The notes: generated by a model not told the origin, from the sequence alone. A stretch of DNA of 64,000 nucleotides from a phage (GCA_018027755.1 GCA_018027755.1_4098.1); one strand, 5' to 3'. Shown: positions 58,331-62,678, counted from the first letter of the stretch. Translations and numbers: made by a program.

Positions 58331-58929
58331 TTTGTTTTTTCCAATAGTTCCCCTACCGCGTGGGGATAGTTTCCCCGCAGTATCTGGAGTTAGATTTTTC
58401 TGAATCTGGAATCATTATCTTATAAACTGGGGGCAATGTCAACGACCTGGTCGGATATTTTTAAAAATTTTTTCAGTACTGAATTTTGGGCGTAACTATG
58501 CACCCGGTGGGCTTGAGTCTTTCTCGACTTGATGGAACTATTATACAGTACTGAAAAAATAAAGCAATACCCTGGAAGCAAAAAAATTTTAATTAATTTG
58601 CTTGCTATCCTGGGCCGGACTATGGTACTATATTTCAGTACTGAGAAAGTGCGTTTGCCTGCTAGGGTGCGGGAGTGTATCCTTTTTTTATATCTTGAAT
58701 TTTGGGCGTAATTCCGCACCCCCTGGGGTTTCCGCTTTCTCGCGTCTATGTAGTAATTATACGCTTTTTCAGGATCAAGTCAATACCTAAAAACAAAATA
58801 ATTGAAAATAATTTAACGCGTTTAAACGGCCCGTAAAGCCCTGGAATGATTGGAATGGTGCAAATGTATAGCTTAGGTGTATTAATGCGTTAGAATGCGT
58901 CTGAGGCCGTTTTACGGGGTATAGGGATG

Positions 58930-59040
58930 ATTTAGTGGATTGATTCAGTACTGAATAATAGTACTCCTATATAGAAAGATAGTTCCCCTGGATTGATTCA
59001 GTACTGAATAATAGTTCCCCTATATAGAAAGAAAACTATT
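58930..59040. repeat. ~45-bp direct repeat (x2) containing the ATTCAGTACTGAAT palindrome
   Basis: gattcagtactgaataatagt.c.cctatatagaaaga appears twice in tandem. Confidence 0.55.
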
Positions 59041-59145
59041 TTAAAAGTATTTGTAGAAAGTACTTGCACAGTACTGAAAAAAGCGTATAATGTTTTACAT
59101 CGAGAGCGGGAACACTTCCCTACTCACTTTTAAGAGATTAAAACG

Positions 59146-59508
59146 ATGGCGACTCAAATCACTAAAATCATTGCTAACCTGGTTAACTTCCGCGACGATA
59201 TGAAAGATCTTCCGGCGGCAACGGTTAAAACTCACATTGACGCATACCGCGAACTGATTAAAATGCTGCCGCTTAAGCGTGAACAATACGCCGCCACCGT
59301 GATGCTTGATGCGATGATCCATAAGATGATCGCCAGTGATTTGACGATGGTTTATCAGTATATGGGCGAAAATTTCGCGGTGTATAGTAAACCAGTACCA
59401 GGAATGGAAAGTACAGAAGTATTACACGGTTTAAATTTAAAACAAGATGCATGGGATAATATGCCTCGTTTCCTGGTATGGGCTGACAGTGGCAAAATTT
59501 ACGAATAA
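59146..59508 (+). CDS. hypothetical protein (early module)
   Basis: Consensus promoter plus leader hairpin upstream; GC-richer codon usage in the 5' two-thirds. Confidence 0.6.
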   Translation: MATQITKIIANLVNFRDDMKDLPAATVKTHIDAYRELIKMLPLKREQYAATVMLDAMIHKMIASDLTMVYQYMGENFAVYSKPVPGMESTEVLHGLNLKQDAWDNMPRFLVWADSGKIYE

Positions 59509-59522
59509 GTTTTAGAAAGTAC

Positions 59523-59550
59523 TTGCAAACTAAGTTTAAAAGCGTATAAT
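59523..59550 (+). promoter_or_regulatory. consensus promoter
   Basis: ttgcaaactaagtttaaaagcgtataat, followed by hairpin gtggggaatagttccccac. Confidence 0.65.
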
Positions 59551-59600
59551 GTTTTACATCAGGTGGGGAATAGTTCCCCACTATATAAGAGGATTAAAAA

Positions 59601-59840
59601 ATGGCTAAATCAAAAATGTTCTTAGGTCACAAAAACAAAACTCATTGGAATGTAAGCCTTTGGATTAATAACGATGAGTCATTGTACCGGTTGGCCCTGG
59701 ACTTTATTGCCGCCAATACTAATCGCAATGATGCGGCCCGTCATATGATGTTATTTTTAGAACAGACTGGACAAGATAAAACACCGGACGGATTCAAATA
59801 TAGCACTACTGCGATCCGTGCGGCGATGGTTGGAATGTAA
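59601..59840 (+). CDS. hypothetical protein, paralog of 61645..61884
   Basis: Shared GHKNKTHWNVSLWINNDESLYR...TPDGFKYSTTAIRAAMVGM. Confidence 0.65.
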   Translation: MAKSKMFLGHKNKTHWNVSLWINNDESLYRLALDFIAANTNRNDAARHMMLFLEQTGQDKTPDGFKYSTTAIRAAMVGM

Positions 59841-59926
59841 TAGAATTTATTTAAAGTACTATCATTTTTTTGCGATAGTACTTTATAATAGTGTTTTATT
59901 CATACACCAACGATAAGGGCAACAGC

Positions 59927-60193
59927 ATGAATATTAAGTATTTTGCGACGCGTGAACAAGCTCGGATCGCCGCTCGCCAGGACGGGGCAACGTTTAAAGA
60001 TATGGGCGTACAATCGGAACGTGGTAAACGTTGGGCCATTGTAAAGCGTAGTACCGCCAGATCATTACAGTACTGGTTAGCGGCCTTAAAAAGTCCCGAT
60101 AGTGTATCGCGTCGAGTGGTAGAAATAAAGCTCGACCGAAAGGGCAACCGCGTGACCGTGTACCGTACTAAAAAGATTGCAGTACTTGAATAA
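59927..60193 (+). CDS. hypothetical basic protein
   Basis: Track ORF 59891..60193; start moved to ATG after AAGGGCAACAGC. Confidence 0.5.
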   Translation: MNIKYFATREQARIAARQDGATFKDMGVQSERGKRWAIVKRSTARSLQYWLAALKSPDSVSRRVVEIKLDRKGNRVTVYRTKKIAVLE

Positions 60194-60200
60194 AAAGTAC

Positions 60201-60228
60201 TTGCAAACTATGTTTAATGGCGTATAAT
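60201..60228 (+). promoter_or_regulatory. consensus promoter
   Basis: ttgcaaactatgtttaatggcgtataat, followed by hairpin gcgggaacacttcccgc. Confidence 0.65.
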
Positions 60229-60281
60229 GTTTTACATCGAGAGCGGGAACACTTCCCGCCTATAACCTGGAGTAATAAAAA

Positions 60282-60512
60282 ATGACTAATATGTATATGA
60301 CTGAAGTTAAAACCGTAAAAGATACTACCACGAATAAAACTACTTACTTACAGCGGATCTGCGGTGTATGGCAACGTATCAGCAAATCAAAGTACTTTAA
60401 ATTAACATCATATGCAAATCGTTCGGATTCATTCAGTACTGAAATAAAAGGTAATAAAGTACACCAATACGGCACTTATTATTATTACAGCCTGGACGCG
60501 ATTGCAGTATAA
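60282..60512 (+). CDS. hypothetical protein
   Basis: SD GGAGTAATAAAAA upstream. Confidence 0.55.
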   Translation: MTNMYMTEVKTVKDTTTNKTTYLQRICGVWQRISKSKYFKLTSYANRSDSFSTEIKGNKVHQYGTYYYYSLDAIAV

Positions 60513-60882: not shown

Positions 60883-60910
60883 TTGACAATAGAAAGTAAA
60901 AGCGTATAAT
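60883..60910 (+). promoter_or_regulatory. sigma70-type promoter
   Basis: ttgacaatagaaagtaaaagcgtataat. Confidence 0.6.
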
Positions 60911-60942
60911 ACTTACATCAACTACTGAATGAGGGTTACAAA

Positions 60943-61554
60943 ATGAAAACTATCACTACTACTACTTTTGTTATGGCTTTTTCTGAACTGAACGCAGAAC
61001 AAAAAACGGCGGCTATCGAACTGGTTCGGGATCGTGAGCGTTCATGTGAGGATAATTTCTTTGCTGAGGGCGTTATCGAGTACTATAAAGAAACAGTACT
61101 ACCAGAATACGGCATAGATGAAGCTGAATTGCAATACAGTGGTTTTTGGTCGCAAGGTGACGGTGCATCAATCAGTACTAACCACGTTGACGCTGAGAAG
61201 TTTTTACGCAAGGTTAAGGCGTTAACGAAATATCGTTCAATCCGTCACCTGTTGAACGAGGATGATTTAGAAATGAGTGTAGAACGTTTCCAATCACGCT
61301 ACGCACACGAAAACACGGTAGGCGGTTGCGTTGATACTCGCTACACTGATTTAACTGTAAAACAGGCGGCATTGGCTGAGGATCTGGAAAACTTACTGAC
61401 TGATGCGATCCGTGAATTATCTCGTAAGTTGTACCGTGATTTAGAGAATGCATATGAGGATCAATTCACTACTGAAAACATCGTAGCACTGATTGAGGGT
61501 AACGAATATCAATTCAATGTGATTGATGGCGTAGTAGAATCAATCGAATATTAA
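60943..61554 (+). CDS. hypothetical acidic protein (203 aa)
   Basis: SD GAGGGTTACAAA upstream. Confidence 0.6.
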   Translation: MKTITTTTFVMAFSELNAEQKTAAIELVRDRERSCEDNFFAEGVIEYYKETVLPEYGIDEAELQYSGFWSQGDGASISTNHVDAEKFLRKVKALTKYRSIRHLLNEDDLEMSVERFQSRYAHENTVGGCVDTRYTDLTVKQAALAEDLENLLTDAIRELSRKLYRDLENAYEDQFTTENIVALIEGNEYQFNVIDGVVESIEY

Positions 61555-61565
61555 TTTAAAAAGTA

Positions 61566-61594
61566 CTTGCATACTAAGTTTAAAAGCGTATAAT
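61566..61594 (+). promoter_or_regulatory. consensus promoter
   Basis: ttgcatactaagtttaaaagcgtataat, followed by hairpin gcggggagtggttccccgc. Confidence 0.65.
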
Positions 61595-61644
61595 ACTTTA
61601 TATCGAGGCGGGGAGTGGTTCCCCGCTCAAACGAGGATTTAAAA

Positions 61645-61884
61645 ATGGCTAGTACTAAAACTTATAACGGACACAAAAACAAAACTCATTGGAATGTAAG
61701 CCTTTGGATCAATAACGATGAATCATTATACCGGATTGCTCAAAATTGCATCGCACAAAGTAGAACTAAAGATATTGCTGCGGAATGTATGTACCGCAGA
61801 TTAAAAGCCAACGGTACTACTACAACGCCGGACGGCTTTAAGTATAGCACTACTGCGATCCGTGCTGCAATGGTTGGAATGTAA
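61645..61884 (+). CDS. hypothetical protein, paralog of 59601..59840
   Basis: Track ORF trimmed to MASTKTY after GAGGATTTAAAA. Confidence 0.6.
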   Translation: MASTKTYNGHKNKTHWNVSLWINNDESLYRIAQNCIAQSRTKDIAAECMYRRLKANGTTTTPDGFKYSTTAIRAAMVGM

Positions 61885-61941
61885 TATTCAGTACTGAGAT
61901 AATGGCGGGTAATAGTTCCCGCCTTTACTGAGGGTTATCTA

Positions 61942-62202
61942 ATGAGTAAAGTAATTAGCTATACAGCACTAAGCAAGACATTATCTATTAGCCAGTGCAC
62001 CGATGGTTATTGGCTATTTGATGAAACGCGTGGCATGAATTTAGCCATGCGTGCAAAAACTGCTGAGGCGGCGTATCTTGAAGCATTGGAATACTACCAG
62101 GAACGTTTAAAGGAAGTAGAAGAAGATTATAAAAGCCTCAAAGCGAAAGTAGATCATTTCGTCGGTCAATTCATCGAGGAAGACGACGACAAACAATATT
62201 GA
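61942..62202 (+). CDS. hypothetical acidic protein
   Basis: Preceded by hairpin ggcgggtaatagttcccgcc and SD GAGGG. Confidence 0.55.
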   Translation: MSKVISYTALSKTLSISQCTDGYWLFDETRGMNLAMRAKTAEAAYLEALEYYQERLKEVEEDYKSLKAKVDHFVGQFIEEDDDKQY

Positions 62203-62210
62203 AAAAGTAC

Positions 62211-62238
62211 TTGCAATTAGTTTTCAGTACTGTATAAT
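62211..62238 (+). promoter_or_regulatory. consensus promoter
   Basis: ttgcaattagttttcagtactgtataat, followed by hairpin gggagaaatggttctccc. Confidence 0.65.
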
Positions 62239-62288
62239 GGTTTACATCAAAGGGAGAAATGGTTCTCCCTGGTAATGAGGAAAATAAA

Positions 62289-62510
62289 ATGGCTAATATC
62301 ACTACTCTTTCCCAACTGGAAGCACTGGTGAAATCTATGCGGGAACATGCCGACAAAATCGGCGTACAAGATCCAGCCGTTTGCTTCTGCGACGAATTGA
62401 ATGATGATACCCTGGTAATAGCAGAAGTCCAGGACGTTTCTAACTATTCCTCGCGTTACACTGGCGGCGTAGCAAATAAAGGCGACTTCTGTTTATACCT
62501 TACAAAATAA
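62289..62510 (+). CDS. hypothetical protein
   Basis: Track ORF trimmed to MANITTL after GAGGAAAATAAA. Confidence 0.55.
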   Translation: MANITTLSQLEALVKSMREHADKIGVQDPAVCFCDELNDDTLVIAEVQDVSNYSSRYTGGVANKGDFCLYLTK

Positions 62511-62678
62511 CAACGCGGGGAGATAATAACTCCCCGTTACTTTTTCAGTACTGAATCATTTAATAGACGGATCTCGGCACCCGGTGGGTTAGTGACTGTT
62601 TCGTCTTGATGTAGTAATTATGCCAGTACTGGATGCACTTGTCAACAACTATTTTTCAAATACTTTTTATTAAAATAC

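Follow-up and report, generated by a model that had tools for sequence, protein, structure and literature searches.

The window analysed here is a stretch of phage DNA of 64,000 nt (GCA_018027755.1_4098.1; 'the window' always means the whole of it), and its right-hand part carries a series of closely related GC-rich elements. The closest relatives of the region are the Asteriusvirus jumbo coliphages UE-S1, WPEC3, JNE01, phAPEC6 and 121Q (92–96% identity); judged from its sequence, the window itself belongs to an Asteriusvirus-type jumbo coliphage. In the record of phage vB_Ec-M-J a 21,525-bp feature is annotated as 'Direct Terminal Repeats', and its base 1 aligns with position 57395 of the window; the record of phage fEgEco12, whose genome ends were determined by PhageTerm and confirmed by restriction digest (PMC13070987), begins at the same place. 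We assign 57395 as the first base of a direct terminal repeat (DTR) of ∼21 kb. With this assignment the window spans the right part of the unique genome, the junction and the terminal repeat, so that all copies of the elements would sit in the early region, 1.1–5.2 kb inside the DTR. All plausible genes in this region are on the + strand. From ∼57.7 kb on each small gene has its own strong promoter of the type TTGCAA-N16-TATAAT-N6-CATC, followed by a 5′ hairpin; this promoter type has zero occurrences in the preceding 57 kb of the window. We characterize the elements as orphan promoter/stem-loop cassettes that would encode a conserved small RNA; their recurrence is far from chance.

The initial annotation had drawn attention to related GC-rich words recurring between genes. 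We saw that GCACCCGGTGGGYTWG does recur on the + strand, at 58500, 60657 and 62577, giving 3 matches versus 0.01 expected; none of 100 dinucleotide-preserving shuffles reached 3. All the repeated words are intergenic (between open reading frames, ORFs), and the coordinates first given for them were right to within 2–5 bases. Two reported variants are present as well, gcaccccctgggg (CC replacing GG) at 58716 and agggtgcgggagtgtatc at 58664 and 60605; as separate words they do not hold, both being the same element, either diverged (58716) or on the other strand (58664, 60605). Nor are the words parts of unrelated terminators; the sole terminator-like copy is the one at 58664–58690. What the first reading missed is the promoter carried by each element: the string tatgccagtact.gat, reported to follow the words and indeed present after the copies called B and C below, is the reverse complement of TG-extended CATAAT −10 boxes. 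The 6.6 kb that follow 57395 contain 6 promoter-linked occurrences of the hexamer GGGTGC; both strands of the remaining 57 kb yield only 3, none in such a context.

The window holds six copies in total, four on the minus strand (A, A2, B and C) and two on the plus strand (A′ and B′); A′/A2 and B′/B are convergent pairs, which form imperfect inverted repeats. Common to the copies is a series made of a sigma70 promoter, a CAT start region, a small hairpin (hairpin 1), the string YUAR-CCCAYM-GGGUGC, and hairpin 2 (GGGUGC-N6-GYRYYY).

A profile built from the window copies was run on the DTR/early regions of relatives, with 82 matches (72 distinct sequences) in total. Five further copies were found in the vB_Ec-M-J repeat, all on the + strand; RaK2 (Klebsiella), CBB (Pectobacterium), GAP32 (Cronobacter), fENko-Kae01 (Klebsiella aerogenes), Munch (Salmonella) and Hallingskeid (Erwinia) have 9–13 copies per corresponding region. 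The elements are conserved across phage genera, in Rak2-like phages of six enterobacterial host genera (Escherichia, Klebsiella, Salmonella, Cronobacter, Pectobacterium and Erwinia), without exception in the DTR or early region; the annotated terminal repeats (vB_Ec-M-J, CBB, fENko-Kae01, Muenster) contain the matches found there. A covariance model (CM) of the 54-nt module gave 81 matches in 262 kb, all in DTR/early regions, and zero matches in positions 1–57394 of the window.

Furthermore, a strict pattern scan of 2.9 million IMG/VR viral contigs produced matches only in contigs of Rak2-like jumbo-phage size (∼346–378 kb) and in two shorter ones; in the full-length contigs the matches were confined to one ∼20-kb stretch per genome, or to its two copies. 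Applied to 185,579 species genomes of bacteria and archaea, the same pattern had one isolated match, which is in an unrelated Dehalococcoidia metagenome-assembled genome, and a query with the 54-nt consensus found nothing in 5,426 Escherichia coli genomes or 72,556 plasmids; on these two results a host or plasmid counterpart, or mimicry of one, was rejected. With Rfam 15 only a tRNA at 1519–1592 of the window passes the gathering score; at E ≤ 10 the sole match overlapping the elements is plant MIR162_1 at 58417–58517 (17.3 bits versus a gathering score of 75, E 6.9), which is at chance level. A tRNA or tRNA-like identity was rejected, as ARAGORN finds only the tRNA-Thr at 1519–1593 in the window.

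The papers on CBB, fEgEco12, fENko-Kae01 and PA5oct do not describe the element, and literature searches on RaK2, Asteriusvirus, phAPEC6, PBECO4/121Q and fENko-Kae01 gave no description of it; in public records its sites are unannotated or overlaid by small 'hypothetical protein' coding sequences. Within the literature searched, this family of orphan promoter/stem-loop units is previously undescribed.

Promoters were scored by the number of −35/−10 hexamer matches out of 12 in the 72 distinct copies, the set to which all fractions of 72 below refer. In every copy the −35/−10 pair reaches 8/12 or more, with a mean of 10.3. Scores of 10 and above, attained by only 2.5% of random positions in the same loci, were obtained for 61 copies, and 44 have the TG extension. 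The distance from the end of the −10 box to GGGTGC is 27–35 nt. An independent consensus scan returned the minus-strand promoters of copies C, B and A2 at 11/12, two of them (C and B) with a TG-extended −10. In the elements examined, the 110 nt behind the start contain neither a conserved ORF nor a Shine-Dalgarno site; a small protein gene was rejected on this ground, and the 99-amino-acid ORF at 58420–58719 on the minus strand, which spans two elements, is not credible.

The initial interpretation stood up in part, and its suggestion that the words might be structured RNA elements is supported. There are two hairpins, one covarying and one based on G·U pairs and possible in a single strand only; for the three copies that had been put forward most prominently the relevant strand is the opposite one. 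A hairpin 1 stem of at least 3 bp, ending 3–6 nt before CCC, is present in 60/72 copies versus 25.7 ± 3.6 (maximum 37) in 500 shuffles. The complementary stems are of more than 20 kinds, including UGAG/CUCA, GACG/CGUC, AGCA/UGCU, GCC/GGC, ACCAC/GUGGU, GGAG/CUCC, GGAA/UUCC, CGC/GCG, GUCA/UGAC and UCCUG/CAGGA, while the loops stay purine-rich (AGAACAA, AGAUAA, GCGAAA, GAGAAA, GGACACAA). The 12 copies without hairpin 1 have a similar A-rich string (AGAAACAAG) in unpaired form. Kissing of the hairpin 1 loop (AGAUA) with the hairpin 2 arm (UAUCU) was considered and dropped, since by eye it fits only the AGAUAA subtype.

In the core YUAR-CCCAYM-GGGUGC the CCC, the A and the GGGUGC are invariant or nearly so (66–72/72 per position). 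For hairpin 2, 90% of alignment cells are paired, versus 33–64% with the partner columns slid. Its 3′ arm, six bases downstream, has a pyrimidine opposite G (72/72 at one position) and a purine opposite U (72/72), and the rare changes in the 5′ arm (GGAUGC, GGGUGG, GGGCGG) retain a matching partner. The pairs are mostly G·U and on the opposite strand turn into C·A mismatches; thus the fold exists only in the promoter-sense transcript. Hairpin 2 was rejected as a general intrinsic terminator, because in the window only 58664–58690 qualifies and hairpin 2 is followed by a mixture of A and U.

Binding sites for a phage regulator had been the other initial proposal, and for the invariant 12-base core they are still a candidate. 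Taken more widely, the element could be bound as double-stranded DNA by a protein of phage or host, such as an early regulator, a terminase or end-binding factor, or a nucleoid protein. The 12-base core, CCCAYMGGGTGC, is almost invariant in ∼80 copies and confined to the terminal repeat, and in several genera a convergent pair lies close to the physical end (∼1 kb from the left end in the window, CBB, fENko-Kae01 and Munch). As a pure double-stranded site the element nevertheless fits poorly: the core lacks dyad symmetry (GCCCACAGGGTGC reads GCACCCTGTGGGC when reverse-complemented), variation is strand-specific, the promoter stands at a fixed distance and in a fixed orientation in every copy, and the adjacent hairpin covaries. 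Neither dyad or direct-repeat symmetry nor strand-independent conservation, the traits of a DNA operator, was found, the bases of the 3′ arm being G·U-compatible on one strand only; the orphan promoters would also be left unexplained. We consider this explanation very improbable.

Relative to the genes, 47/72 copies are co-directional and 25/72 run against them. The co-directional copies usually stand just after the terminator of the upstream gene, whose hairpin often holds the −35; this stem-loop is clear in many copies of the relatives (GGGGTTGACTTCGGTCAGCCCC-TTTTG), is annotated as such in the GAP32 record and is not evident for the six window copies. No terminator was seen within 120 nt in 62/72 copies. 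By our terminator definition one was found for 7/25 antisense copies, and some solitary antisense copies reach a bidirectional terminator 27–50 nt after hairpin 2 (copy C of the window, for example).

One could ask whether the element is a cis-acting leader whose nascent RNA, or the core's non-template strand, alters the polymerase transcribing it (pausing, attenuation, or terminator read-through as with put/nut); co-directional copies would then boost or gate the downstream early genes, and antisense or convergent copies would interfere with transcription. This agrees with a module at a fixed distance from a near-consensus promoter, with the 47/72 co-directional copies, usually without a terminator and just upstream of the promoter of the next gene, and with the −35 often being buried in the terminator hairpin of the upstream gene. 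Two hairpins near the start are a feature of put, and a −10-like hexamer stands right behind hairpin 2 in 33/72 copies. Also, the three G's have two possible partners, the CCC upstream of them and the arm downstream; the resulting folds are mutually exclusive, as expected of an attenuator. On the other hand, a third of the copies face against all genes, some terminate after ∼100 nt with nothing downstream to regulate, and the downstream genes are mutually unrelated; by eye there is no likeness to nut/boxA sites, and Rfam has no match. As the −10-like hexamer is present in only those 33 copies, a universal −10-like pause element after hairpin 2 was rejected. We regard the cis-acting leader as unlikely.

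We favour a reading in which the elements specify an autonomous, multi-copy, immediate-early structured non-coding RNA working in trans as a regulator or decoy. As a combined statement its chances appear to us evenly balanced. That the elements are promoter-driven structured RNA we hold with good confidence; that this RNA acts in trans is put forward tentatively, at somewhat less than even weight. Under the favoured reading host RNA polymerase would use the near-consensus sigma70 promoter, whose −10 is often TG-extended, as soon as infection begins. The product would be a short non-coding RNA with its first ∼55 nt folding into the conserved module: a 5′ hairpin with a purine-rich loop, the linker YUAR, the near-invariant CCCAYM-GGGUGC and the second hairpin GGGUGC-N6-GYRYYY. 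With ∼10–13 units per ∼20-kb DTR, in either orientation, a packaged genome would have 20 or more. The invariant core and the exposed A-rich loop might then bind a partner common to all the infections, a host or phage protein or RNA polymerase itself, and the RNA would most likely be an abundant immediate-early regulator or decoy in trans. The anatomy and strand of the units, the covariation, the confinement to the DTR and the conservation across phage genera are observed; their transcription and the binding of a common partner we infer.

The trans reading is preferred because the units are autonomous, their orientation is irrelevant, several have their own terminators and the conserved part is antisense to nothing. 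There is a precedent in PA5oct, a distant relative, which expresses two abundant non-coding RNAs from its DTR, ncRNA001 and ncRNA002 (236 and 451 nt), both highly transcribed throughout infection by RNA-seq (PMC7318152). The likeness would be in the location of a non-coding transcription unit, within the long terminal repeat of jumbo phages that are related. The CM run on 17 kb of the PA5oct repeat gave a best match of 12 bits (E 0.33), i.e. no similarity to the module; homology to the PA5oct RNAs was rejected, the element being absent from PA5oct.

One could speculate that Rak2-like phages flood the cell within the first minutes with a dedicated RNA from 20+ DTR promoters, with CCCAYAGGGUGC and the A-rich loop capturing a shared host factor; we see this as possible, though doubtful. 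With the same reserve, a defence sensor, a ribonuclease or RNA chaperone, or RNA polymerase itself may be named as candidates for the captured factor.

Several observations weigh against the RNA reading. The transcription starts of all copies were derived from promoter geometry. In 44/47 co-directional copies there is no terminator and the promoter of the next gene comes 14–66 nt further on, so that these transcripts may be mere long 5′ leaders. The invariant 12-mer has no covariation and could equally be read as DNA. Hairpin 2 is weak, and RNAalifold prefers over it an alternative mini-hairpin, RCCC-AYM-GGGU; since the 5′ arm is invariant, a shuffle control cannot separate the pairing of hairpin 2 from column composition, and transition bias may contribute to its Y/R pattern. 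For hairpin 1, each of four pairs is changed on both sides in 24–37 sequences of an alignment that was fitted to the model and leans towards structure, the seed alignment likewise having been chosen for pairing; the raw stem list and the shuffle test are independent of both. Finally, the copies are paralogues in a recombination-prone region, and therefore gene conversion may inflate their conservation.

Still another possibility is that the elements are origin promoters of the T4 oriF/oriG type, in which a G-rich transcript (GGGUGCGGAG) stays hybridised in AT-rich DNA and primes the leading strand. T4 origins consist of a promoter and an unwinding element, and the elements are orphan, gene-less promoters in either orientation with a G cluster followed by AT-rich sequence; the promoters of A and A2 point to an AT-rich stretch and to an iteron-like array at 58188–58316, in a 1.7-kb non-coding terminal region. 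Also, phages of the CBB group carry homologues of T4 replication proteins (PMC5259590). Against this, ten or more origins in 20 kb of a 350-kb genome are hard to rationalise, the iterons are only beside the terminal copies, convergent pairs would prime towards each other, and neither hairpin covariation nor an invariant core is a feature of T4 oriF/oriG. We find origin promoters improbable.

Among known systems the closest kind is that of the promoter-early stem-loop (PeSL) cassettes of T4-like phages (Arbiol et al. 2010, PMC2839356; Comeau et al. 2014, PMC4122927). As in PeSLs, a strong sigma70-type early promoter is fused to GC-rich stem-loops in multiple copies, in a plastic region of small ORFans of a T4-related myovirus; the consensus sigma70 early promoter of PeSLs is present in the elements, and the −35 inside an upstream terminator hairpin, seen in many copies of the relatives, matches one described PeSL subclass. 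There are differences as well. PeSLs end in the Shine-Dalgarno site and start codon of a downstream gene; the elements have neither a Shine-Dalgarno site nor an ORF and thus miss one defining PeSL feature. The conserved parts of PeSLs are promoter and terminator, to which the elements add the conserved transcribed module of 54 nt. Lastly, PeSLs are described as co-oriented with genes, unlike the elements with their two orientations and convergent pairs.

This likeness raises the question whether the elements are cargo-less cassettes of the PeSL type, either recombination substrates that shuffle early ORFans or leftovers of ORF loss, with a functionless transcribed part. The whole DTR does resemble a PeSL-rich hyperplastic region, with a strong promoter and a hairpin per small ORF; PeSLs join sigma70 promoters to GC-rich stem-loops and mediate indels (PMC2839356, PMC4122927), and an HNH endonuclease gene is directly behind one Munch copy. 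However, the 54-nt module, its compensatory stems and the invariant core persist across at least five genera while flanking genes are replaced, and in the one indel examined (window versus vB_Ec-M-J) the breakpoint is at ordinary gene promoters and not at the elements. We think it very unlikely that the cassettes are cargo-less.

Two functional analogies may be added. Lambda OOP and P22 sar, from temperate phages, are single-copy antisense RNAs acting by extended complementarity to one mRNA. They would share with the elements a short non-coding transcript from its own constitutive promoter, convergent with a protein gene; an own promoter with convergent overlap with a gene is seen for copy C and some antisense copies, and copy C would share a terminator with the gene 62259–62510, overlapping its last codons. 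Yet two thirds of the copies (47/72) are co-directional with genes, the conserved part is antisense to nothing and a DTR holds ∼10–13 members of the family. The put sites of HK022 and the nut sites of lambda occur in small numbers, each in front of the operon under its control. Here the likeness is a structured RNA shortly downstream of early promoters, with two stem-loops in put and a boxB hairpin with a purine-rich loop; we noticed no sequence resemblance, and the elements are numerous, are often oriented away from all genes and include 10 conserved single-stranded nt as linker and core.

Many jumbo phages of the RaK2/121Q/GAP32/CBB group are being isolated for use in therapy, and their ∼20-kb repeat is annotated nearly throughout as 'hypothetical'. 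Beside ∼50 small genes this DTR holds an RNA module that is conserved and multi-copy; annotation pipelines either overlook it or place spurious small ORFs over it. If made as predicted, the RNA would be among the most highly templated early transcripts and a candidate for a role in host takeover or counter-defence; if the capture of a factor were true as well, virulent phages would possess a new RNA class, made up of decoys or of RNAs that modify polymerase. The 54-nt module, with its clear consensus, is also a simple sequence marker for the DTR/early region of this group.

Turning to the individual copies, copy C (62505–62645, minus strand) has the −35 TTGACA at 62645–62640 and the TG-extended −10 CATAAT at 62622–62617 (spacer 17; promoter 11/12), with a predicted start at ∼62610. 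Its RNA would contain hairpin 1 (GAC-GAAACA-GUC), the core CUAACCCACCGGGUGC with GGGUGC at 62582–62577, and then hairpin 2; the CM match is at 62559–62612 (51.5 bits, E 1.4e-8). The copy ends at a bidirectional terminator hairpin (62536–62516) common to the convergent gene 62259–62510; it is a minus-strand terminator-like site, and the U-rich sequence after the hairpin overlaps the stop codon of that gene. This predicts an RNA of ∼105 nt. When orthologues of copy C were aligned, the unit was seen to be kept as far as RaK2 with unrelated flanking genes, the terminator stem covaries, and the GAC/GUC of hairpin 1 becomes AGC/GCU in RaK2.

Copy B (60639–60718, minus strand) has TTGACA at 60718–60713 and TG-extended CATAAT at 60695–60690 (spacer 17; promoter 11/12). 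An unstructured A-rich leader replaces hairpin 1; the core is again CUAACCCACCGGGUGC, with GGGUGC at 60662–60657, and hairpin 2 is GGGUGC-ACAAUU-GUAACU (CM match 60639–60681, 30.7 bits; nhmmer E 7e-12). Its partner B′ (60546–60629, plus strand), one of the two sites of the variant agggtgcgggagtgtatc, has TTGACT at 60546–60551 and TG-extended CATAAT at 60569–60574 (10/12), hairpin 1 UGGC-AGAUAA-GCCG, core UAGCCCAUAGGGUGC, GGGUGC at 60606–60611 and hairpin 2 GGGUGC-GGGAGU-GUAUCU (CM match 60577–60629, 47.6 bits). A read-through transcript of B′/B folds as a long hairpin (−46.4 kcal/mol, z = −4.9).

In copy A2 (58698–58783, minus strand; the initial annotation's variant gcaccccctggggtttccgc) the −35 TTGACT is at 58783–58778 and the −10 TATAAT at 58761–58756 (spacer 16; 11/12); hairpin 1 is CGC-GAGAAA-GCG, the core AACCCCAGGGGGUGC, and hairpin 2 GGGUG-CGGAAUUA-CGCCC, followed by AAAAUUCA (CM match 58698–58751, 50.8 bits). 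The opposing copy A′ (58602–58690, plus strand) is the most divergent one, with TTGCTA at 58602–58607, TACTAT at 58626–58631 (8/12), core CCUGCUAGGGUGC, GGGUGC at 58665–58670 and hairpin 2 GGGUGC-GGGAGU-GUAUCC running into U7; nhmmer detects it at E 8.8e-9, there is no CM match at E ≤ 1, and with its terminator-like site at 58664–58683 it is the only window copy resembling an intrinsic terminator. Copy A (58482–58567, minus strand) has TTGCTT at 58567–58562 and TATAAT at 58545–58540 (spacer 16; 9/12), hairpin 1 AGUC-GAGAAA-GACU, core AAGCCCACCGGGUGC, GGGUGC at 58505–58500 and hairpin 2 GGGUG-CAUAGUUA-CGCCC, then AAAAUUCAGUACUG and an AT-rich stretch; its CM match is at 58482–58535 (50.1 bits), and both hairpins appear in the minimum free energy fold.

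Two partial copies, promoter-less and with the 3′ half only (..GGGUAACUACGCCCAAAAUCC and ..GGGCUAGACAUAUCUACGCCCAAAAUCC), could be read directly from the sequence on the minus strand of 58110–58165. On the + strand they appear as a repeated TTTTGGGCGTA, a word that occurs at 58118, 58144, 58484 and 58700, the last two positions lying inside A and A2. Having no significant CM match, the partial copies are probably degenerate remnants.

In Munch an annotated HNH endonuclease gene begins 12 nt after one element (locus L007, 15376–15950); with its start this close behind, the gene apparently uses the promoter of the element. Behind the counterpart copy in fENko-Kae01 (14060–14127, in the segment L005 14060–14391) there is an ORF that opens with the same residues.

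Each of the small early genes of the window (59040–63760) has the same cassette in front, AAAGTACTTGCAA-N16-TATAAT-GTTTTACATC, then a 5′ hairpin of the GGGGA-N-UUCCCC type with covarying stems, then a Shine-Dalgarno site; examples are at 59523–59580, 60201–60258, 61567–61625 and 62679–62735. These are PeSL-like regulatory cassettes. At 58343–58375 we saw AGTTCCCCTACCGCGTGGGGATAGTTTCCCCGC, with only a 4-bp stem, probably another GGGGA..UCCCC hairpin; it has a loose likeness (∼17/29 identical) to what we take to be the E. coli type I-E CRISPR repeat (GAGTTCCCCGCGCCAGCGGGGATAAACCG).

The segment 57121–59146 is non-coding, and the first ∼1.75 kb of the DTR has no credible gene. The iteron-like tandem array at 58188–58316 has a period of 8/16/24 bp (CTGGATGG, CTAGACGG, CTAAACGG; 4.2 exact copies of CTGGATGG) and is situated in this terminal non-coding region. 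In minus-strand terms copies A and A2 lie upstream of it, as does another promoter of that strand at 58442–58414.

Fur-box-like palindromes were considered as a part of the element and rejected: they adjoin copies in RaK2, fENko-Kae01, Munch and Hallingskeid and are absent from the DTR part in the window, from CBB and from GAP32. Their sites, after or between elements near the genome end, are L003 29895–31270; L005 775–800, 2342 and 7309; L007 776, 2343 and 7434; and L008 19378 and 19708. One example, GATAATGATAATCATTTAC, has 2 mismatches to what we presume to be the E. coli Fur box consensus.

Chi was likewise rejected as an element part, as it is often nearby at no fixed position. Chi (GCTGGTGG) is strongly over-represented and strand-biased in the DTRs of the window and relatives; counts on the gene strand versus the other are 9 versus 2 in vB_Ec-M-J and 12 versus 2 in fENko-Kae01, with ∼0.1 per 20 kb expected from base composition. 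A back-to-back Chi pair (CCACCAGC-acaa-GCTGGTGG; 57971–57990 in the window) occurs ∼0.5–0.6 kb from the left end in the window, vB_Ec-M-J, fENko-Kae01 and Munch. The pattern near the ends suggests that linear ends are shielded from RecBCD.

The top over-represented palindromic hexamer in the whole window is AGTACT, with 243 occurrences versus ∼22 expected (11-fold). The word CAGTACTG occurs 57 times versus 0.7 expected, in genic and intergenic sequence; it is densest in the DTR and often found within promoters (AGTACTTGCAA; CAGTACTGTATAAT). Six GC-rich palindromic hexamers, CCGCGG, CCCGGG, CCATGG, CAGCTG, AGGCCT and AGCGCT, are wholly absent from the window. Outside the DTR, the minus strand of 38540–52874 carries about eleven ORFs of similar size (∼370–450 amino acids), in a window that is otherwise almost entirely + stranded; this run looks like a paralogous gene array.

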